A stretch of DNA of 64,000 nt from an uncultured Candidatus Saccharibacteria bacterium (GCA_964419675.1 CAYQPN010000002.1:67073-131072); one strand, 5' to 3'; counted from the stretch's first letter, positions 1,762-57,402 are shown. Made by a program: numbers and translations. The notes: a model not told the origin generated them from the letters alone.

Positions 1762-2698
1762 CTGTTCTACTTCCCTGATATTTCAGGGCAACTTCAGAAA
1801 AGAAAGTTTCAAGTGCTGATTCTCCGTCAGCACTTGTTTTAATTAGGTAATCAATATCGGCTAAAGAGCTTACGTAAAAACGTAAATCTTGTTTTGTCAT
1901 TCTTCTGGCCAGCTGAAGCGACTTTTTTGCACCGTACGGTGACATTCCAGCGCTAGTCAATGAACTTTCAGTCTTTTGGGGGCTCAATACAGCCAAAGCC
2001 AGTTGCTGAAGTTGCCAGGTAATCATAGCTATTATTTGCTGGTGTTCTATACCTTGGGCTCTTTGATCTTGGTATAGTTCCCACGCCCTTTTAGACTGAC
2101 CATTGAACAACGCATCAAGCATCGTAAAGATTTTGCTTTGAGGAGTTGGCTCAACAAGCGCTGTTATAGCTTGTTCAGATATAACTTTTGTATAGAGAGA
2201 AAGTTTTCTTATCTCACTCTCCAAATGTTGCTGATTGGTCCCCACTAAATCTATTAGCATCCTAACCTCGGCTATAGCTATCTCAGCATTATTTTCATGA
2301 GCGGTATCCTGCACCCACTTTTCTAGTAGATAGGGAGACAGCTCTTCAAAACTTTTAAAATCGGTCTTATTTTTTAGGAAACTATAAACTTTTGACCGCT
2401 TGTCGAGCTTAGCGTCGACAAGTATCAAGTCGGTAGACTCGGCAACTTGGCCTACGATTGTCTCAATACCTTCAATTATTTTACTAGATTGAAAAAAATC
2501 TCTTACAATAACTAATTTCTTTGGCTCTAAGAACGAGATACTTCTTACTGCGTCCAGAAGATAGTCAGTTGAATCTAAATCTGAACCATCATATCTCTCA
2601 ATTGTATTAGCACCATGTGCTTTTTGGTGGATACTTTGGATTCTATTTAGCTCACCTGCAATCGCTAATAAGTTTTTTCCCGTCAACGTGACTATCAT
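1751..2698 (-). CDS. holA: DNA polymerase III delta subunit
   Basis: 315 aa with overall HolA-like layout (N-terminal MIVTLTGKN..., FLEPKKLVIVRD, later helical domains). Its 3' end overlaps rpsT convergently by 11 nt. Confidence 0.75.
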   Translation of the reverse strand: MIVTLTGKNLLAIAGELNRIQSIHQKAHGANTIERYDGSDLDSTDYLLDAVRSISFLEPKKLVIVRDFFQSSKIIEGIETIVGQVAESTDLILVDAKLDKRSKVYSFLKNKTDFKSFEELSPYLLEKWVQDTAHENNAEIAIAEVRMLIDLVGTNQQHLESEIRKLSLYTKVISEQAITALVEPTPQSKIFTMLDALFNGQSKRAWELYQDQRAQGIEHQQIIAMITWQLQQLALAVLSPQKTESSLTSAGMSPYGAKKSLQLARRMTKQDLRFYVSSLADIDYLIKTSADGESALETFFSEVALKYQGSRTVIS

Positions 2699-2803
2699 AG
2701 GCTACAATATACCACTTCTCGCACTGTTAGTCTCATGAAAGGCTACAAAGAACACGTCTAATACGCACTAATATTCGTATCGATAACAGAGATAGGGACT
2801 GAA

Positions 2804-3694
2804 CTACTTTTTTGTTCGTTTTATATTTGGTGGTCTTTGACACTTTGGGCAGAGGTGTGTACCCCTACCAGCTACACGCGTCTTTTCAATAGTAGTTTTA
2901 CAACGTGGACACGCCAGATTTTCCCTGTGAAAAACACGGGCAAAATCCATATAGCTTCCTTTTTTACCTTCGGCATTAACATAATTCCGATTCGTACTTC
3001 CACCTTTATCTAATGCAAGATTTAGAATGTAAACTACTTCCTTGTGTAGTTTTTTTAGTTGAGTTGACGAAAGGTCTTTAACAATTGAAGCAGGATGTAT
3101 ACTAGCTCCCCATAAACTTTCATCAGCATATATATTGCCTACGCCGGCTAATACTGTTTGATCTAAAAGGGCTGCTTTTATTGATGTACCCGGACGCTTT
3201 CTTACCTGTCCTAGGAAAACTCCTGATGTGAATCCCTTTTCTAATGGTTCCGGCCCAAGTTTTTTTATAAAAATATCTTCTTTTACAATTTCAGTTGGAA
3301 TCAATTTTACCCAACCAAATTTACGTTGGTCATTAAAATATAAATGCGATTTATCTGAGAATGCAATCACTACTCTAGAGCTCTTGTCTGGAAGTTTGCT
3401 AATTAACGAATCGTTAGGATGGCCTGCCCCAAAACGTTTACTACCAACAAAAACCAGTTGTCCTGTCATCTTTAAATGAATCATTAAGCTATAGCCTGAT
3501 GACAGCCCTATCAACAATACTTTTCCTCTACGACCAACAGATATAATCTTCTCATTTATTACAAATTTATCTACTGAGTTTTTGTCGTTGGGGAAAGACT
3601 TATGATTATCGTTAGTGACAGATTTTATCTTTTTCCCGACGATTAATTTAATTAACCCACGTCTTACTGTTTCAACCTCTGGCAACTCTGGCAT
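2804..3694 (-). CDS. mutM: Formamidopyrimidine-DNA glycosylase
   Basis: MPELPEVETVRRGL N-terminus and C-terminal zinc finger CPRCKTTIEKTRVAGRGTHLCPKCQ. Confidence 0.93.
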   Translation of the reverse strand: MPELPEVETVRRGLIKLIVGKKIKSVTNDNHKSFPNDKNSVDKFVINEKIISVGRRGKVLLIGLSSGYSLMIHLKMTGQLVFVGSKRFGAGHPNDSLISKLPDKSSRVVIAFSDKSHLYFNDQRKFGWVKLIPTEIVKEDIFIKKLGPEPLEKGFTSGVFLGQVRKRPGTSIKAALLDQTVLAGVGNIYADESLWGASIHPASIVKDLSSTQLKKLHKEVVYILNLALDKGGSTNRNYVNAEGKKGSYMDFARVFHRENLACPRCKTTIEKTRVAGRGTHLCPKCQRPPNIKRTKK

Positions 3695-5363: not shown

Positions 5364-5957
5364 TTAAAGACCGGTGCCGCTAACAATTGTGTTGTAGTCA
5401 GCAACTTGGCCCTTAAAAAGAGACTTTATGACTGACATTTTTGCACCAGAAGTTCCCTGTTTTGCACTACAAGATGTGCCCCATCTTCTAAGATCTGAGT
5501 CTAGCTCAATGATGTAGCGTTTGCCTGTTGCACAAACGCCTTCATCGGCAAAATCTTCTTCAGCAGTAGTGTCTTTTATCCTTGATGTCACGCTGTTTTT
5601 ATCTAGCGCACTTAAGAATGCGTTATAAGATTCAAGGGTGTTTGGATAGCTTTTTTCTGAAATAAGAATTTGTCCGTAAGCCTTATATAACTTCATAGTT
5701 ACGGTCTTTTGTGTAACTTCAATTACATATGAACGCTGTTTATCACTAGCCACAATTGGTCCTTCGGTGATAAATCGTGCAGAAGCGGTTGTTTCAATGT
5801 TGTAAGGCTCTTCAGTTGTAGCCTGTGAAGTTGTGCTTTTACTACCGCCCTTAAAGACATTCTTAGCTATTGAGGCAATTCCCCATCCAACCAATACCAA
5901 TGCAAGCAGTGATATAAAGATGACAATTATCCAACGTAATCGTGATGCAAACTCCAT
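5364..5957 (-). CDS. Hypothetical membrane-anchored protein
   Basis: N-terminal TM helix WIIVIFISLLALVLVGWGIASI followed by a soluble domain with two Cys. No recognisable family. Confidence 0.55.
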   Translation of the reverse strand: MEFASRLRWIIVIFISLLALVLVGWGIASIAKNVFKGGSKSTTSQATTEEPYNIETTASARFITEGPIVASDKQRSYVIEVTQKTVTMKLYKAYGQILISEKSYPNTLESYNAFLSALDKNSVTSRIKDTTAEEDFADEGVCATGKRYIIELDSDLRRWGTSCSAKQGTSGAKMSVIKSLFKGQVADYNTIVSGTGL

Positions 5958-30821: not shown

Positions 30822-31751
30822 TTAGGCCTCTGTTTTTGGAGTACGTGTGTGAGTAGTCTTGCTCACTTCATTAGCAGTAATCATGGCATTACGAAGCTGT
30901 TCGGCTATATCGTTCATGCCAGCAGGGCTATGCGGAATCATGATTGTGTTGCTGTTTGAACTAATTCCCACCTCTTTTAGAGTGTCGAAATACTGAGTCA
31001 TTAGGACTAGGTTCATAACGTCTTGTGCATTAGTGCCGTGAACATCGGTTTGAAAGTCAGCTACACTATCCTTTAATCCATTTATAATTGCTGTACGCTG
31101 ATCTGCAATACCTTTACCTTGCAAAGCTTTGCTTTCAGCTTCGCCCTCGGCAGCCTTAACTACTCTGATTTTATCAGCTTCGGCCTGCTCTACCGCAGCT
31201 ACTCGCAACCGCTGAGCAGCATTTATCTGGTTCATGCTGGCTTTAACGTTTGCGTCTGGGTCAATATCGGTTACGAGTGTTTTTGTTATTCCATAACCAA
31301 AGTCATCCATTATTTGTTCCAGTTCAATTTTTACCGCCTGAGCAATATTATCTTTAGTTTCAAATACATCATCTAAATTAATGCTTGGCACCCTGGCCCG
31401 TACTACGTCATACACATAACTTGTAATCTGAGCTTCGGCATTCTGCAGTTTATAAAAAGCATCTATGACTTTTTCAGGTATTACGAAATATTGAACACTT
31501 ACAATGACAAATACAAATACGTTATCTTTAGTCTTGGTCTCAACCCGCACGTCTAATTGGCGTACTCTGAGAGATAAGCGCCCAGCAACTCTGTCAATCA
31601 ACGGGATCTTAAAATTCAAACCCGCGCCCGCGATACGCTTGAATTTCCCAAACCTCTCCACTATTGCTGCTGTTTGCTGCTTGACAGTAAATAGGCCTGT
31701 GAATATAAATACGACTATTACTATTGAGAAAAACACTACTGAATCCATCAT
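30822..31751 (-). CDS. SPFH/band-7 (stomatin/prohibitin-like) membrane protein
   Basis: N-terminal TM, then VKQQTAAIVERFGKFKRIAGAGLNFKIPLIDRV and an Ala/Glu-rich coiled region. Confidence 0.88.
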   Translation of the reverse strand: MMDSVVFFSIVIVVFIFTGLFTVKQQTAAIVERFGKFKRIAGAGLNFKIPLIDRVAGRLSLRVRQLDVRVETKTKDNVFVFVIVSVQYFVIPEKVIDAFYKLQNAEAQITSYVYDVVRARVPSINLDDVFETKDNIAQAVKIELEQIMDDFGYGITKTLVTDIDPDANVKASMNQINAAQRLRVAAVEQAEADKIRVVKAAEGEAESKALQGKGIADQRTAIINGLKDSVADFQTDVHGTNAQDVMNLVLMTQYFDTLKEVGISSNSNTIMIPHSPAGMNDIAEQLRNAMITANEVSKTTHTRTPKTEA

Positions 31752-31856
31752 TCCTCCTCTTTATAAATATTAGTATAACTATAAATAATTAGGCTACAAA
31801 ATCCTTCACTACTTAGCCAAAATAATAAACCGGCCAAGGTGGTCGATTCTTTAGTT

Positions 31857-32021
31857 TGGAGGAGAGGGAGAGATGAGTAGCCTAAATAATCTATGCGCCG
31901 AATGCAATTCGGGCACTAGACTATTTAGCGAGCTCTTTTTTGCTAAAGCAAAAAGTCAGGTTCGAATTCTTCCAGCTACAACAACACAGAAAGCCACGTC
32001 TATGGACACGACTTGTTGTAT
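31857..32021 (-). other. tRNA 3'-end echo module downstream of tRNA-Ser(UGA)
   Basis: The 18 nt at 31857-31874 (tggaggagagggagagat) repeat the tRNA 3' end 32022-32039 (tggcggagagggagagat) with one mismatch at the discriminator; the offset is 165. In between lie an 8-bp closing hairpin (TACAACAA...TTGTTGTA), a TTCGAA T-loop-like box (31961-31966) and two further hairpins. Confidence 0.6.
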
Positions 32022-32111
32022 TGGCGGAGAGGGAGAGATTCGAACTCTCGAGACCCTTGCGGGCCTGACGGTTTTCAAGACCGTTTCCTTAAACCACTCG
32101 GACACCTCTCC
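32022..32111 (-). tRNA. tRNA-Ser (anticodon UGA), CCA encoded
   Basis: Hand fold: acceptor GGAGAGG/CCTCTCC, D stem TCC/GGA, anticodon stem ACGGT/ACCGT with loop CTTGAAA, long variable arm, T arm GAGAG-TTCGAAT-CTCTC, G-CCA. Confidence 0.93.
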
Positions 32112-32156
32112 TAGCTCGAGCAATTATAACAGAGATAAAATCAGGTTGCTAGATTC

Positions 32157-32246
32157 TGGCGGAGAGAGTGGGATTTGAACCCACGATACTCTTACGAGTA
32201 AACCGCCTTTCCAAGGCGGCGCCATAGGCCACTAGGCGACCTCTCC
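32157..32246 (-). tRNA. tRNA-Ser (anticodon GGA), CCA encoded
   Basis: Hand fold: acceptor GGAGAGG/TCTCTCC, anticodon stem CCGCC/GGCGG with loop TTGGAAA, long variable arm, T arm GTGGG-TTCAAAT-CCCAC, G-CCA. Confidence 0.93.
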
Positions 32247-32254
32247 ATAATTCC

Positions 32255-32303
32255 AAATTAAAGAACCCGGATTTAATTATACTCAAATTAAAAGTCCGGG
32301 TTC
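32255..32303 (-). terminator. Long hairpin with T-rich tail downstream of the 32317-32760 gene
   Basis: GAACCCGGA (32263-32271) pairs with TCCGGGTTC (32295-32303). The loop carries an internal TTTAATT/AATTAAA pairing. A T-rich run follows on the minus strand. Confidence 0.5.
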
Positions 32304-32316
32304 TCGTTAAATACTA

Positions 32317-32760
32317 CTAGCTATTAGAGCCAGAGGCTTTGCTATTCTTCATTTTCATTGCTGCGTGAACTGTCATTGCGACTGCGCCGGCAGCTGTTAG
32401 CCAAAAGCCTATGCCAGTTTTGACATATGAGCCTAGACCGCTATCAGGGTAATTTGAGAATACTATTAATAGTGCAACCACTCCGGCAATTAAACCGACT
32501 GTTGTCATCATTTTCTTCTCTTGGTTCATAACATTTAGTGCTGCCCCGGCTGCTGCAACCGCACAAAGAAGCAATAATATTCCTGTGCTGTTTAGCCCTG
32601 GGCTAACTGATCTTGAAATTCCAAAGATTGAAACAGAGTACCAAGGTAGGAACAAGCCAACAACTGTTGCTGCTGCCCCGCCAACTCCTAGTGCTAACAT
32701 TCTGTCTTTCTTAAGTTGATCTACTACTTTTGATGCGTCGAATTTCTCTGATTCTGCCAT
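32317..32760 (-). CDS. Hypothetical polytopic membrane protein
   Basis: 147 aa with four Gly/Ala-rich hydrophobic helices. Confidence 0.55.
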   Translation of the reverse strand: MAESEKFDASKVVDQLKKDRMLALGVGGAAATVVGLFLPWYSVSIFGISRSVSPGLNSTGILLLLCAVAAAGAALNVMNQEKKMMTTVGLIAGVVALLIVFSNYPDSGLGSYVKTGIGFWLTAAGAVAMTVHAAMKMKNSKASGSNS

Positions 32761-53766: not shown

Positions 53767-54252
53767 CTAGGAATGAGTGCCCAATACTTCAACAATTTTT
53801 TGCTTGTGCTTATTAATAGCGTACATAAGCTGAGAGTGCAGTGGAGAAGGTAAGCTGTCTAGAGTAAACCAGCCTATCTCATCAATTACCCCTGGTTCAC
53901 CAATCTTGGCTTTGCTTCTATCAATTTGCATAATGTGGTCTATCGAAACCCAATGAGTTGGGGTGCCGTCATCTAACTTTCTGTGAACGTCTCGAAAACC
54001 AAGGGCTATAATGTTGTTCCCAGTCGTACAGAGTTCTTCTTCTAGTTCACGCAATAAGTTATCTTCTATTTTTTGGCCGTGTTTCAGCCCGCCACCCAAG
54101 ATATCCCATCTACCGTTTTCATCTCTGGCTTTGGGCCCGCGTTTCATCATTAAGAAGTTCCCTTTGCCATCATGGCAAAATGCAGCCGTGGTTACCCCAA
54201 CAAAACTTATGCCTTTGTGTGCTCTAAGTGTTTCTGAATCTAGCCTTTTCAT
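53767..54252 (-). CDS. NUDIX hydrolase
   Basis: Nudix box GGGLKHGQKIEDNLLRELEEELC. Confidence 0.85.
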   Translation of the reverse strand: MKRLDSETLRAHKGISFVGVTTAAFCHDGKGNFLMMKRGPKARDENGRWDILGGGLKHGQKIEDNLLRELEEELCTTGNNIIALGFRDVHRKLDDGTPTHWVSIDHIMQIDRSKAKIGEPGVIDEIGWFTLDSLPSPLHSQLMYAINKHKQKIVEVLGTHS

Positions 54253-54276
54253 TTATTTAATCATAGCAAAATTTAT

Positions 54277-54440
54277 TGGCGGAAGAGGTGGGGTTCGTCT
54301 TAACTTGCTCGCTCGAGAGCGTAAACGCATCTCGCTCAGCCAAGCATGGAAAACTCGAACATTCACAGAATGTTCTCGCCCTCTCGGGTTCGAACCTAGA
54401 TACTCGCCATCCTTCGTAGCCCTAGACAGGCGACGAAGGA
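54277..54440 (-). other. tRNA 3'-end echo module downstream of tRNA-Ser(CGA)
   Basis: The 21 nt at 54277-54297 (tggcggaagaggtggggttcg) are identical to the tRNA 3' end 54441-54461; the offset is 164. In tRNA orientation the order is as follows. First an 8-bp hairpin TCCTTCGT...ACGAAGGA directly after CCA. Then the box CTAGGTTCGAACCC (the tRNA has GTGGGTTCGAACCC). Then about 90 nt with hairpins (GAACATTC-TGT-GAATGTTC and others). Then the exact copy. Confidence 0.65.
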
Positions 54441-54531
54441 TGGCGGAAGAGGTGGGGTTCGAACCCACGTTAGGCTTTACCCTAAACACGATTTCGAATC
54501 GTGCGCCTTCAACCAGCTCAGCCACTCTTCC
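54441..54531 (-). tRNA. tRNA-Ser (anticodon CGA), CCA encoded
   Basis: Hand fold: acceptor GGAAGAG/CTCTTCC, D stem GCT/GGC, anticodon stem CACGA/TCGTG with loop TTCGAAA, variable arm TTAGG...CCTAA, T arm GTGGG-TTCGAAC-CCCAC, G-CCA. Confidence 0.93.
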
Positions 54532-54663
54532 ATATGCTAGTAATTATAGCCTAAAAATGATAAACTTACCTCTGTTGCAGTTTTGGGTTTCAATGTTGTT
54601 CTACCCAAAAAGTAATTCCGATTGCTTTTTGAGAAGGAAGAACTTTGTTAGAAGTTGAAGATT

Positions 54664-54692
54664 TTGCAGTCATTTGCAAAACGAAATATGAA
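54664..54692 (+). promoter_or_regulatory. Putative promoter of tRNA-Arg
   Basis: TTGCAG (54664-54669), 17 nt, TATGAA (54687-54692), 16 nt before the tRNA 5' end. Confidence 0.4.
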
Positions 54693-54707
54693 CAAAGGTT
54701 CTGACGC

Positions 54708-54784
54708 GCACCCGTAGCTCAGCTGGATAGAGCGTCTGTTTGCGGTACAGGAGGTCGTACGTTCGAATCGTATCGGGTGTACCA
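54708..54784 (+). tRNA. tRNA-Arg (anticodon GCG), CCA encoded
   Basis: Hand fold: acceptor GCACCCG/CGGGTGT (G1-U72), D arm GCTC-AGCTGGATA-GAGC, anticodon stem TCTGT/ACAGG with loop TTGCGGT, T arm GTACG-TTCGAAT-CGTAT, A-CCA. Confidence 0.9.
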
Positions 54785-54970
54785 CGAAAGTAGCCAGGTT
54801 TTATGCCTGGCTTTTTTCGTGATGCCACCGATTTGATACGTACGACCGAAAAGAGGTCGGAGGTGAGAAATGCCAATGGCATTTTGCAAGGAAACCTTCT
54901 CTTGAAAACTTGTTTTCTAAGAAGAAGTTTCAGGTCTGCAGAATGTGGGCGAGTCGTATCGGGTGTACCA
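54785..54970 (+). other. tRNA 3'-end echo module downstream of tRNA-Arg(GCG)
   Basis: The 17 nt at 54954-54970 (tcgtatcgggtgtacca) are identical to the tRNA 3' end 54768-54784; the offset is 186. The order runs: intrinsic terminator (54792-54817), then the box GTACGACCGAAA (54840-54851; the tRNA has GTACGTTCGAAT). About 100 nt with three hairpins follow, then the exact copy, then an A-rich stretch and a terminator-like hairpin. Confidence 0.65.
54792..54817 (+). terminator. Intrinsic terminator immediately 3' of tRNA-Arg
   Basis: AGCCAGG (54792-54798), 7-nt loop, CCTGGCT (54806-54812), then T6. Confidence 0.8.
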
Positions 54971-55020
54971 ATAAAAATGTCGAACTTTAGCTTCGGGCTT
55001 TTTTATTGGCTATATTATAC

Positions 55021-56319
55021 TTAGCCCTGAATTTTTGGAGGTTTTATGTCTGAAAACGTTTTTACTGGTTTCTTAACGGGTTTTGCTTCTGGCTTTTCTT
55101 CTTCTTTTGTATCTATACTCTGAACTGTTTCTTTGGCTTTCTCTACGCTTACGTCGGGCTTATTGTCTTCAGGTGCAGATTCTGCCGGAACAGCTTTATC
55201 ATTTTTCTTCTTAAGTTTATGCAATATTACTAATGTAGCAGAAAGCAGTAGTGCAACAACCGTATACCCAATGACCGGCTTAAACATTTGCTCAGCAACT
55301 TTAGGGCCAACATAATTTACGAAGTTAACAGCAATTTCCGGCCCAATTAATTTACTAGAGTCTGTCTCGCCAACTGATACAAATTTATCTACTGTAACAG
55401 AGGAACTACCGACGTTAATTAATATTGCTACGACACTTACCAGCATAGCGCCAATAATAAATACCTTTATTACGTGACCTATGCCTTTGCGTATGTTCTT
55501 GCCCAAGAACGCCACAAAAAAAGCCAGAGCAACTGCCAAAATCATTAACCAAGTAAATATCTGCCTAGCTTGCCCAAAATAATAAGGTACGTCGCTATTT
55601 TGCTCATCAAAACGCAAATCAGTCGGACTTTTTGTATCAGAATTAAATACTGTTTTATCCGTCACGACTGTATCTGGGAAAAACTCGTCTGAGTTTAGCT
55701 GTTTACGTAAATCAGCCTCTGATTGGTCAATAACAGCGGTTGGTGGTTTGCAGGCAATAGAAAATATATCAGTTTCTTGTTGAAGTTGAGCAGGGGAACA
55801 GTCCGCAAGTGTTGAAACCTTGTTGCGTGCATAAGAAACAATAGCATCTACAAAAGTAGCTTTTGTGACCGATAAATCTACGCTAAACTCAACTTTTTTA
55901 TCTTGACCATTAAGCCAATTATAAAATCCATCTATAACGCTCTCTGCCACTTTCTGAAGCGTCTGAGGAGTTAGTGATGCAGTAATCGCTGTTTTGACTG
56001 CCTCTGGGTCAATATTATTACCATCCTGATTTTGTTGATTACTGCCGTTGTTTTGATTGTTACTTAGATCTTTATTGGGATCGTTGTTTTGCTGATTGTT
56101 CGATGATGAATCCTTGTTTAACTGTTTGTTGATATCAAAGTTCTTAATGGCACTGTCTATCGCCACCTTGTATGTTTGGCTACCGCTTAGGTACGATTTA
56201 ACTACTTCTTTATCGGCAACCGAATGATTTAATGTCCAGAAAATCGAGCCTAAAAACAAAACTACTATTAATAAAAATGAAAGAAACCATAAACCGAATC
56301 TCCGTATAAATGTAATCAT
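55021..56319 (-). CDS. Hypothetical membrane protein with Asn/Gln-rich low-complexity ectodomain segment
   Basis: 432 aa with an N-terminal TM, an NNQQNNDPNKDLSNNQNNGSNQQNQDGNN tract, three C-terminal TM helices and a Lys/Glu/Pro-rich tail. Confidence 0.6.
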   Translation of the reverse strand: MITFIRRFGLWFLSFLLIVVLFLGSIFWTLNHSVADKEVVKSYLSGSQTYKVAIDSAIKNFDINKQLNKDSSSNNQQNNDPNKDLSNNQNNGSNQQNQDGNNIDPEAVKTAITASLTPQTLQKVAESVIDGFYNWLNGQDKKVEFSVDLSVTKATFVDAIVSYARNKVSTLADCSPAQLQQETDIFSIACKPPTAVIDQSEADLRKQLNSDEFFPDTVVTDKTVFNSDTKSPTDLRFDEQNSDVPYYFGQARQIFTWLMILAVALAFFVAFLGKNIRKGIGHVIKVFIIGAMLVSVVAILINVGSSSVTVDKFVSVGETDSSKLIGPEIAVNFVNYVGPKVAEQMFKPVIGYTVVALLLSATLVILHKLKKKNDKAVPAESAPEDNKPDVSVEKAKETVQSIDTKEEEKPEAKPVKKPVKTFSDIKPPKIQG

Positions 56320-56321
56320 AG

Positions 56322-56891
56322 TTAAAACCTAAACCTCCTTGATAACCTATCTATTGCATCTAGCTCACGTTGTTCGTGTGGCAAGAAATTAGCAAGCGTG
56401 TCCACAATTTTATCCTCTTCATCAGGCGGGAAGTACATGACTATTGGTGGCGTAAACCGTTTGAGTCTTACAAGCACGACGCTATCAATAGCACCATCTT
56501 CAACAACTGAAAAGGACCTAAACCCAGCGTAGGGGTAAAACTGTTGGTCAACCATAACACCGTCTGAATTGATGAGGTATCTTTTTGTAGCCGGTTGACG
56601 GCCTGCATATACAGAAATGGCTACGCAAGCCAAAAGCACCACAGCGCTGGCTAGATAATCCCGAGTAATGAAAAAAACAATAAGTACCAACAACCCAGCC
56701 CCTGCAAACAAAGCAAAATACCAATTAGATGACTTTTGGTGTTCTATAAATTCAGATGCAGACCATTCAACAGCCTGAAACTCAGGTAGTGGCACCCCTT
56801 GGGACTGTTGAAAAGTTTTTTCCGTTAAATCTTCCTGGTTTTCAGGTTGTTGATTTAACTCGCCCTCATCTTGCATACGCTTATTGTACAC
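56322..56891 (-). CDS. Hypothetical membrane protein (two TM helices plus a small C-terminal domain)
   Basis: 189 aa. The stretch WYFALFAGAGLLVLIVFFITRDYLASAVVLLACVAISVYAG forms a helical hairpin. It lies directly upstream of the 55021-56319 gene, separated by 2 nt. Confidence 0.6.
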   Translation of the reverse strand: MYNKRMQDEGELNQQPENQEDLTEKTFQQSQGVPLPEFQAVEWSASEFIEHQKSSNWYFALFAGAGLLVLIVFFITRDYLASAVVLLACVAISVYAGRQPATKRYLINSDGVMVDQQFYPYAGFRSFSVVEDGAIDSVVLVRLKRFTPPIVMYFPPDEEDKIVDTLANFLPHEQRELDAIDRLSRRFRF

Positions 56892-56930
56892 AGTAGTTTA
56901 TTTGCTGACTAGTACAAATATGGTTGCTCG

Positions 56931-56957
56931 AAAACAAAAAAGTCCCTAAACGGGACT
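56931..56957 (-). terminator. Intrinsic terminator after the Ser(GCU) echo module
   Basis: On the minus strand: AGTCCC-GTTTA-GGGACT followed by TTTTTTGTTTT. Confidence 0.7.
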
Positions 56958-56965
56958 ATTTTGTT

Positions 56966-57141
56966 TGGCGGAGAGAGAGGGATTCGCCTGACCAGCAAAA
57001 CAAATATTAGTTTTGCTAAGGTCACCCCAAATCCAGTTGGTTTGGGGCTAAAGGTTCGGGGAGTGCCACTGGCACTCCCGTTCGAATCCTCCTCTTCAAT
57101 AAATAATAAAGCCCAGACAAATATGTCTGAGCTGTATTATT
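56966..57141 (-). other. tRNA 3'-end echo module downstream of tRNA-Ser(GCU)
   Basis: The 21 nt at 56966-56986 (tggcggagagagagggattcg) are identical to the tRNA 3' end 57142-57162; the offset is 176. In tRNA orientation the order is as follows. First the terminator (57101-57132). Then the box GAGGATTCGAAC (the tRNA has GAGGGTTCGAAT). Then three strong hairpins: GGGAGTGCCA/TGGCACTCCC, CCCCAAA/TTTGGGG, and TGACC..AGCAAAAC/GTTTTGCT..GGTCA. Then the exact copy and a second terminator. Confidence 0.65.
57101..57132 (-). terminator. Intrinsic terminator immediately 3' of tRNA-Ser(GCU)
   Basis: On the minus strand: GCTCAGACA-TATT-TGTCTGGGC (one G-U pair) followed by TTTATTATTT. Confidence 0.75.
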
Positions 57142-57234
57142 TGGCGGAGAGAGAGGGATTCGAACCCTCGCGGGAGATTTCTCCCCCCTAATGATTTAGC
57201 AAACCATCCCCTTGAGCCACTTGGGTACCTCTCC
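57142..57234 (-). tRNA. tRNA-Ser (anticodon GCU), CCA encoded
   Basis: Hand fold: acceptor GGAGAGG/TCTCTCC, D stem CCC/GGG, anticodon stem ATGGT/ATCAT with loop TTGCTAA, 21-nt variable arm, T arm GAGGG-TTCGAAT-CCCTC, G-CCA. Confidence 0.92.
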
Positions 57235-57402
57235 TCGTCACAAGGTACGGCTGATCTCTCAAAATTAATTCTATGAGAATTTATTTATTAAAAATCGCCT
57301 TCTTGTTCCTCTCAATTCTACATAAGAATGTAGAATTGGGCTAAACACAGAAACCTTTTGCGACTTATATCGTATCGTATCTGTTATAAAAAGAGAAGTG
57401 CT

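Follow-up and report, generated by a model that had tools for sequence, protein, structure and literature searches.

Why should an intact tRNA gene be followed by a second copy of its own 3' end? The question is raised by tRNA-Ser(UGA) in a 64,000-nucleotide (nt) stretch of DNA, here called the window, from an uncultured Candidatus Saccharibacteria bacterium (GCA_964419675.1 CAYQPN010000002.1:67073-131072). Positions 32022-32039 of the window read tggcggagagggagagat and form the end of this gene, while positions 31857-31874 read tggaggagagggagagat and repeat it; we refer to the repeat as the echo and to the segment at 31857-32021 as the module. The 18-nt block starts in the T loop with residues A59 and U60, continues through the 3' strands of the T stem and the acceptor stem, and ends with the discriminator (G73) and CCA; the sole difference between echo and tRNA is a change from G to U, in the tRNA sense, at the discriminator. 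The two copies lie 165 nt apart from start to start, with 147 nt between them. A copy at this distance from the tRNA 3' end, with a discriminator mismatch, had been described in an earlier note made from the sequence alone, and was confirmed by the sequence, ARAGORN and Rfam. When the 64-kb window was searched with the 18-mer as a pattern, at no more than one mismatch, these two sites alone were returned, and dinucleotide-preserving shuffles gave a chance expectation of 0.02 matches even at up to three mismatches.

The results described below support the view that the echo is part of a recurring module and rule out a chance repeat. With moderate confidence, we interpret the structure as a tRNA-tail module like the RtT units of E. 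coli, that is, as a partial, non-functional duplicate of a tRNA 3' end whose T loop would be occupied by a structured insert. In calling this locus a module the earlier note was largely right.

The module and its siblings in the window

All five tRNA genes in the window encode CCA, and modules were found behind four of them, each with a copy of the tRNA's own 3' end 165-186 nt downstream on the same strand. The three siblings of the Ser(UGA) module that the earlier note had reported do exist, and their blocks are of 21-23 nt (Table 1). Across the four modules the copied tRNA positions run from 56 or 59 to 76, and the plan is common to all: a terminator-like hairpin follows the CCA of the tRNA, next come a T-loop-like box, two to three hairpins and the echo, and a further terminator-like hairpin closes the series. 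The cores differ among the four. Only 45 nt separate the end of tRNA-Ser(GGA), which has no module, from the start of tRNA-Ser(UGA). With four of five tRNAs occupied, the genome is unusually module-rich.

The module behind tRNA-Ser(UGA) starts 1 nt past the CCA of the gene on the same (minus) strand. Each of the internal features named earlier (a closed hairpin, a TTCGAA box, an 8-bp hairpin and a long hairpin) was found. In the first hairpin an inner stem at 31991-32014, together with a U-rich tail, scores as terminator-like, and every sibling module has a terminator-like hairpin at the equivalent position. The box sequence ATTCGAAC is the reverse complement of GUUCGAAU, the T-loop sequence of the tRNA (G53-U60); read from the sequences by eye, it is present in 11 of 17 module units (12 with one single-mismatch unit), which have an A at the position of tRNA G53 and a C at that of U60. 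One G.U pair occurs in the base of the long hairpin, on the tRNA-sense strand. The terminators past the echo are clearer in the Arg and Ser(GCU) modules than at 31831-31845. In folding, the 202-nt region beat 200 of 200 shuffles (z = -3.2).

Between the repeats there is no open reading frame (ORF) of at least 20 aa, and neither ARAGORN nor the Rfam tRNA model (RF00005) finds a cloverleaf at 31857-32021. Rfam, run in both modes on the window and seven other loci (loci of relatives are given L numbers), assigned no family to any module and returned sub-threshold noise only. One such model, sX4 (RF02223), scored 19-32 bits against a threshold of 70 bits at window 31963-32120 (-) and in L004, L005, L097 and L140; its matches span a tRNA-Ser gene plus trailer and, as they cover the tRNA genes themselves, are uninformative on the modules.

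Table 1. Features of the module behind tRNA-Ser(UGA), its siblings and the adjacent tRNA genes (window positions)
Feature	Position	Strand	Details
tRNA-Ser(UGA) gene, CCA encoded, intact	32022..32111	-	ARAGORN; Rfam tRNA model 57.2 bits
Source copy of the 18-nt block	32022..32039	-	sequence; pattern search
Hairpin 1, right after CCA	31977..32020	-	outer stem TACAACAA/TTGTTGTA
T-loop-like box GGAAGAATTCGAACC	31959..31973	-	TTCGAA at 31961-31966
8-bp hairpin CTTTTTGC/GCAAAAAG	31935..31955	-	written CUUUUUGC-UUUA-GCAAAAAG
Long hairpin of type C core	31882..31928	-	base CUAAAUAGUCU/AGAUUAUUUAG, variable tip
Echo, 18-nt copy of tRNA 3' end	31857..31874	-	1 mismatch; unpaired in minimum-energy fold
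Weak hairpin and U-rich run directly past echo	31831..31845		second terminator-like, module-closing element
tRNA-Ser(GGA), only window tRNA without module	32157..32246	-	ARAGORN
Sibling module behind tRNA-Ser(CGA)	54277..54440	-	echo 54277-54297, 21 nt, 0 mismatches; type A model 18.4 bits (weak)
Sibling module behind tRNA-Arg(GCG), core type A	54785..54970	+	echo 54950-54970, 21 nt, 1 mismatch; type A model 115 bits
Sibling module behind tRNA-Ser(GCU), type-A-like core	56964..57141	-	23-nt identity block 56964-56986, 0 mismatches; fold z = -11.4; type A model ~18 bits

Modules in other Saccharibacteria

Relatives were compared at 25 Saccharibacteria loci around the Band_7 gene and at 70 metagenome loci with a similar tRNA-Ser(UGA). 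A census of 116 CCA-encoding Ser and Arg(GCG) tRNAs, in which neighbouring tRNA genes were left out, listed 15 echoes; the Ser(UGA) entry of L005 is in fact the echo of the adjacent Ser(GCU) module, and the corrected count is 14 intact echoes plus three degenerate ones. Occupancy thus stands at about 12-15% of tRNA-Ser and tRNA-Arg(GCG) genes. No echoes were found behind 21 other CCA-encoding tRNAs, a sample too small to fix the tRNA range, or behind about 41 tRNAs without an encoded CCA. The same design recurs behind tRNA-Ser and tRNA-Arg genes of other Saccharibacteria species, and the echoes track each local tRNA although tRNA 3' ends vary by species: three tRNA-Arg(GCG) ends (...CGTATCGGGTGTACCA, ...CGCGCCGGGTGTACCA and ...CCTGCCGGGTTCACCA) are accompanied by three matching echoes.

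Tandem or nested arrays were also found, with two modules and two perfect echoes behind tRNA-Arg in L008 and three units behind tRNA-Ser(UGA) in L006. The L006 array is identical in six independent assemblies, so such arrays are not assembly artefacts. An artefact confined to this assembly had been named in the earlier note as a possible undoing of the module; the design is present in assemblies of other species as well. The notion that the repeat is due to chance or to misassembly, for which it can be said that the exact genome is on record in one assembly, is refuted for practical purposes by the low expectation given above, by four modules in one window and by the recurrence of the design in many independent assemblies.

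No intact echo follows 49 of the 55 CCA-encoding tRNA-Ser(UGA) genes, two of the 49 (L001 and L006) having decayed or truncated modules. In L002 the order from tRNA to Band_7 is kept with only ~85 nt between them. Absence of the region from close relatives, with no effect on neighbouring gene order, had been named in the earlier note as a result that would count against the finding; by this test the module is dispensable, since most relatives have none and L002 keeps its gene order without one. In L106, tRNA-Ser(UGA) is followed (~1174 down to 1050, minus strand) by a near-perfect palindrome of ~115 nt and no module. A metagenome scan with the 432-aa protein encoded between the Arg and Ser(GCU) modules recovered no relatives, and a comparison of tRNA-Arg trailers in 14 species gave no answer as to which of the two terminators is native, as terminators evolve too fast.

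The cores fall into at least four unrelated-looking types (A-D) that cut across tRNA identity. Behind tRNA-Ser(UGA), for example, the core is of type C in the window, B in L003, A in L004 and L006, and D in L135 and L140. Type A was also found at Arg(GCG) (window, L005 and L008), Ser(CGA) (L097) and Ser(GGA) (L092) and, as a more distant form, in the Ser(GCU) and Ser(CGA) modules of the window. In the consensus fold of type A there are 39 pairs, 19 of them changed on both sides, with 91.5% of cells paired; none of 500 shuffles matched this, and slid controls were 31-51% paired. The single invariant G.U pair is on the tRNA-sense strand. The Arg core of the window is 80% identical to a Ser(UGA) core, compared to 58-70% for other Arg cores.

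The junctions of type A are fixed. On the 5' side a copied variable loop and T-stem 5' strand run to U54, after which the core begins with GAG; on the 3' side the core gives way to C56-G-A-A-U, the 3' strands of T stem and acceptor stem, and NCCA. This position, after U54 and before C56, is the same in five tRNA contexts. Type A is thus an insert of ~95 nt that occupies the T loop of an incomplete tRNA copy. The copies that host type A are always partial or redundant. Model R1, which describes type A, also picked up the core in L006 and L002, where it occupies the T loop of tRNA-Ser(GGA) genes that are full-length yet broken.

A different account of the modules, that they are decayed tandem duplicates of whole tRNA genes or of 3' ends, in which nothing was inserted and the hairpins are accidental, would fit the tRNA-like character of both box and echo and the broken full-length tRNA-Ser(GGA) genes that lie beside intact ones in L006 and L002. 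Unequal crossing-over was moreover the classical explanation of the E. coli repeats. The junctions at fixed T-loop positions argue against it, as do cores that are 58-80% identical across species and tRNAs with compensatory changes; the cores are unlike tRNA bodies, and the modules give no hit with ARAGORN or the Rfam tRNA model. For type A, covariation and the sharing of cores across tRNAs have already largely refuted this account, and for the modules in general we consider it very improbable.

Several arrangements around type A are worth recording. In the broken tRNA-Ser(GGA) copies (L006 899-1016; L002 1727-1845) positions 1-54 are intact, type A occupies the T loop and the 3' end is decayed; each copy lies just upstream of an intact, clearly different tRNA-Ser(GGA) paralogue. 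The two sequence types of tRNA-Ser(GGA) exchange broken and intact roles between L006 and L002, and the window has one type and L003 the other, a distribution that suggests replacement of tRNA genes. In L087 (~5650-5850) a duplicated upstream region with positions 1-22 of tRNA-Ser(GGA) precedes a type-A-like core (37 bits), and both lie upstream of the intact tRNA; this amounts to a "5' echo", the mirror of the 3' modules. In L011 (1-250) a segment of ~50 nt, comprising a terminator tail, a spacer and the ATTCGAAC box, is directly repeated around a type-A-like core with an Arg-like echo, in a register that resembles the 178-bp tandem repeats of E. coli. Four independent Logan contigs from the species of L006 (L160, L163, L165 and L166) begin at the same base, 302 nt upstream of Band_7 and inside the near-palindromic P2 hairpin of a type A core, and modules may break short-read assemblies.

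The module at 31857-32021 has a core of type C, not type A, and the sole match of R1 near 31857-32111 is the T arm of the tRNA itself (32022-32055, 14.3 bits). No second type C copy is present in the window. The sole relative among the loci lies behind tRNA-Ser(GGA) in L003, whose Band_7 protein, at 90% identity, is the nearest to that of the window among the fetched loci. The two copies have an identical hairpin base and a tip that is different and still paired, and a 3-bp closing stem changes from GAG/CUC to AGG/CCU. In L003 the echo spans 18 nt from A59 and is an exact copy of tRNA-Ser(GGA).

These comparisons bear on three points of the earlier note. The shorter block had been read as a possible sign of age or weaker constraint; as the L003 copy shares an 18-nt block, with the same T-loop start and no mismatch, a short block is instead a property of the type and does not point to decay. 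The discriminator mismatch proved not to be conserved, since other Ser(UGA) echoes differ from their tRNAs by C72U (L003) or by a change of CCA to CUA (L008), or have lost one half (L001). Lastly, tRNA-Ser(GGA) cannot serve as a module-free internal control, because modules stand behind it in L003 and L092. The module at the orthologous site in L001 shares a 5' part, consisting of a box remnant and a UUUUUGC...GCAAAAAA hairpin, and has a hairpin similar to the 8-bp hairpin at 31935-31955; its 3' part is different, and 12 of 18 echo bases remain. Given this remnant, the C72U change in L003 and the CUA in L008, the scattered echo changes look like unconstrained decay after the echo was formed. 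In L003 two ORFs (2154-3151) stand between the module-bearing tRNA-Ser(GGA) and tRNA-Ser(UGA), a gap of just 45 nt in the window; one is of 188 aa and the other of 144 aa (minus), the latter, by eye only, PD-(D/E)XK endonuclease-like.

Origin of the modules

According to the reading that we favour, tRNA-Ser(UGA) would be followed in turn by a terminator-like hairpin, an inverted T-loop-like box, the type C core and the copy of positions 59-76, and the whole would be one member of a Saccharibacteria family found behind tRNA-Ser and tRNA-Arg(GCG). The cores may have spread by insertion into T-loop sequences. As insertion into an essential single-copy tRNA would be lethal, surviving insertions would be those in spare copies only, namely partial duplicates and redundant paralogues, and the echo would drift neutrally after insertion. 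By analogy with E. coli RttR, read-through transcripts might be trimmed at the CCA of the echo by tRNA 3'-end enzymes; the trimmed product, if made, would most likely do the cell little or no good. It is conceivable, if speculative, that cores A-D constitute an unrecognised class of small protein-less elements that home to the tRNA T-loop sequence and survive only in spare copies, with enterobacterial RtT as a distant member. If so, RtT-like "tRNA-tail" elements would be a widespread tRNA-gene parasite or tRNA-tagged RNA, ranging from E. coli to ultra-small bacteria of the candidate phyla radiation (CPR).

Several observations count against the tRNA-tail reading. The predicted duplex between box and echo is weak in the Ser(UGA) module (-4.4 kcal/mol) and no better than with shuffled echoes, in a test that does not discriminate, as the echo is polypyrimidine; a closing helix of 5' strand and echo is present in the minimum-energy folds of the sibling modules, unlike that of the module at 31857-32021. 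Between each tRNA and its module stands a terminator-like hairpin, and none of the window modules contains a promoter-like site, so that transcription of the modules, unlike that of E. coli RtT, is doubtful. Near-identical pairs of copies within one genome were not seen, and recent transposition is thus not demonstrated. Nor were unoccupied partial tRNA duplicates seen, which the idea of spare copies predicts, and type C is known from two copies only. Finally, the Rfam RtT model (RF00391, gathering threshold 45 bits) has no match at E<=10 on 31700-32300 and the seven other loci, or at E<=5 on 54200-57300, and type A model R1 scores only 7-8 bits on RtT units. Judged by sequence, the plan is shared with RtT, while homology with RtT is unproven because neither covariance model recognises the other family.

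The alternative that the modules are footprints, or miniature non-autonomous derivatives, of a site-specific integrative element appears unlikely. On this account a tRNA-targeting integrase crosses over in the T loop, the element supplies a tRNA 3' end and a terminator, and the displaced native end becomes the echo, the two copies corresponding to attL and attR. The direct repeat of the tRNA 3' segment from T loop to CCA is as the account demands, and Williams reportedly described such a block in 2002 as the classic identity block of T-loop-class tRNA integration sites. A terminator-like hairpin follows both block copies, as if one had been supplied by the element, and the tandem arrays look like successive integrations. 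The known repeats of tRNA-targeting integrases, and their miniature derivatives, likewise show a direct repeat from T loop or T stem to CCA, an intact tRNA followed by a terminator, and possible arrays. In the modules, however, the repeats are just 100-190 nt apart with no integrase or cargo, no integrase was found among 20 window ORFs scanned, and no echo at kilobase distance was found within 6 kb of any tRNA sampled in the Saccharibacteria and related loci, neighbouring tRNA genes aside. The Arg and Ser(UGA) modules gave no core match in 50,697 phage records (blastn, distant mode), and three pattern scans of IMG/VR for types C and A returned none, five and one hits, all of them chance matches in coding DNA, away from any tRNA; a counterpart of phage or plasmid type was not found, plasmids being unsearched. 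A core can be shared by Arg and Ser tRNAs even though, T loop apart, their blocks are different. The core also splits tRNA-like sequence: in type A it parts the T-stem 5' strand flank from the right flank, unlike the build of an attP.

We consider it unlikely that the modules encode a functional tRNA-mimic small RNA. Such an RNA would need a 3' end equal to that of its cognate tRNA (whether to be processed, to bind a protein specific for that tRNA or to sense the state of the tRNA), and selection would keep the echo identical. Most echoes do equal the local tRNA over 17-23 nt although 3' ends vary by species, the cores show covariation of the RNA type with G.U pairs on the tRNA-sense strand, four modules persist in 64 kb of a streamlined genome, and RttR as annotated in E. 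coli is a processed RNA that ends at the CCA of an echo. Yet about 85% of orthologous tRNAs have no module, close relatives with the same gene order among them, and core types interchange at one tRNA. Echoes are mutated at the discriminator, at position 72 or in the CCA, or are truncated; in the Ser(UGA) module the echo is unpaired, and the modules have a terminator upstream and no promoter within.

RtT, other known systems and neighbouring genes

The RtT or 178-bp tyrT repeats first became known in E. coli around 1980; to our knowledge, neither their origin nor their function has ever been explained. Egan and Landy in 1978 and Rossi et al. in 1981 are said to have found the tyrT operon followed by 178-bp repeats, each ending in the last 19 nt of tRNA-Tyr, and Bösl and Kersten reportedly showed in 1991 that the tyrT repeats give rise to RtT RNA. 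In E. coli K-12 the four tyrT units end in AATCCTTCCCCCACCACCA and score 133-137 bits with RF00391, in whose consensus a 5' GGGGAAGG pairs with the echo CCUUCCCC, and the annotated end of rttR is exactly the CCA of an echo. The mode of action of rttR is still called unknown (bioRxiv 10.1101/2024.07.17.603846).

The tRNA-tail modules of Saccharibacteria resemble RtT in that the unit lies directly behind a tRNA on the same strand, is ~170-180 nt long and ends in a copy of the tRNA 3' end including CCA (the last 19 nt in RtT), and that units can be tandem; a strand like the T-stem 5' strand pairs with the echo in RtT and in the predicted folds of the sibling modules. The likeness to type A extends to a UGAGAA motif after the T-stem-like strand (AUGAGAA in RtT, U-GAGAAA in type A), a GGUUCGA T-loop-like box in both, and a hairpin GUUGCC-NNN-GGCAAC in RtT against AAUGCC-NNN-GGCAUU in type A. 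The type C module has the general plan alone in common with RtT. The differences are that the host belongs to another phylum, that the tRNAs are Ser and Arg, not Tyr, that at least four core types occur, that terminator hairpins stand between tRNA and module, and that there is no tpr-like ORF.

Rfam models RtT from enterobacterial sequences only. An RtT-like design in a CPR bacterium, with several core types and tRNAs, covariation, and gain and loss, opens this old puzzle to comparative genomics, and it offers a concrete hypothesis, in which a structured insert has settled in the T loop of tRNA copies that the cell can spare. That a ~1-Mb genome tolerates four modules within 64 kb is notable in itself. 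In practical terms, duplicates of tRNA ends can deceive island-finding programs in which tRNA fragments serve as att sites, and modules can hide broken tRNA paralogues. The Ser(UGA) copy of the window is rather degenerate.

Other systems share single features with the modules. Fujishima et al. are said to have described in 2010 non-canonical introns in archaeal tRNA genes of Thermoproteales and to have proposed their transposition among tRNA genes. Like these, the modules have a short structured insert at a fixed T-loop position, with related inserts across different tRNA genes; they differ in their bacterial host, in that the interrupted copies are partial or broken, and in that no bulge-helix-bulge is evident at the junctions. 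We know of no splicing endonuclease in bacteria. Group I introns at position 35/36 are reported in a study of tRNA introns in Patescibacteria, in which these modules go unmentioned (PMC13011429). Such introns belong to the same phylum and are likewise RNA inserts tied to tRNA genes; in contrast, the Rfam group I model has no match here, the cores are ~95 nt long, and they sit at the T-loop position of a partial copy. With transfer-messenger RNA (tmRNA) and other tRNA-like domains the modules share a 3' end made of the T-stem 3' strand, the acceptor 3' strand and NCCA. An GGAUUCGA-like box near the 5' side recalls the 5' region of tmRNA. The modules differ from tmRNA in having no intact T arm and no tag reading frame, and acceptor pairing is weak or absent in the type C module.

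A number of candidates were rejected. A tmRNA is not found by ARAGORN. For a small tpr-like ORF, no conserved frame exists, and the Ser(UGA) module has none of at least 20 aa. A transposon of the miniature inverted-repeat type does not agree with the lack of a second type C copy in the window, with four different cores, or with a duplication of 18-23 nt that is tRNA-derived. Inspection of the junctions, with no dedicated scan, gave no support for a bulge-helix-bulge, for group I or group II intron boundaries or for an integron attC core, nor, by the same inspection, for a retroviral-type primer-binding site on the opposite strand or a guide RNA of the TnpB/IscB type. A partner gene was not seen among the 20 window ORFs scanned, and these included no transposase or reverse transcriptase.

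ORFs near the module are of an ordinary chromosomal kind: Band_7/SPFH, DUF1801, 3-methyladenine glycosylase, a putative MFS fragment and ABC transporter genes. Proteins closely homologous to the Band_7 protein bear the name Candidatus Saccharibacteria. Ten further ORFs of the window are housekeeping, and NUDIX, sigma-70, Mur ligase and TsaD are among those scanned. The ORF of 147 aa next to tRNA-Ser(GGA) (32317-32760, minus strand) aligns with no more than the C-terminal half of the MFS_1 profile, scoring under the curated cut-off, and may be a gene fragment. In tRNA-Arg(GCG) (54708-54784, plus strand) a G1.U72 wobble pair tops the acceptor stem, in place of which the L005 orthologue has G2.U71.

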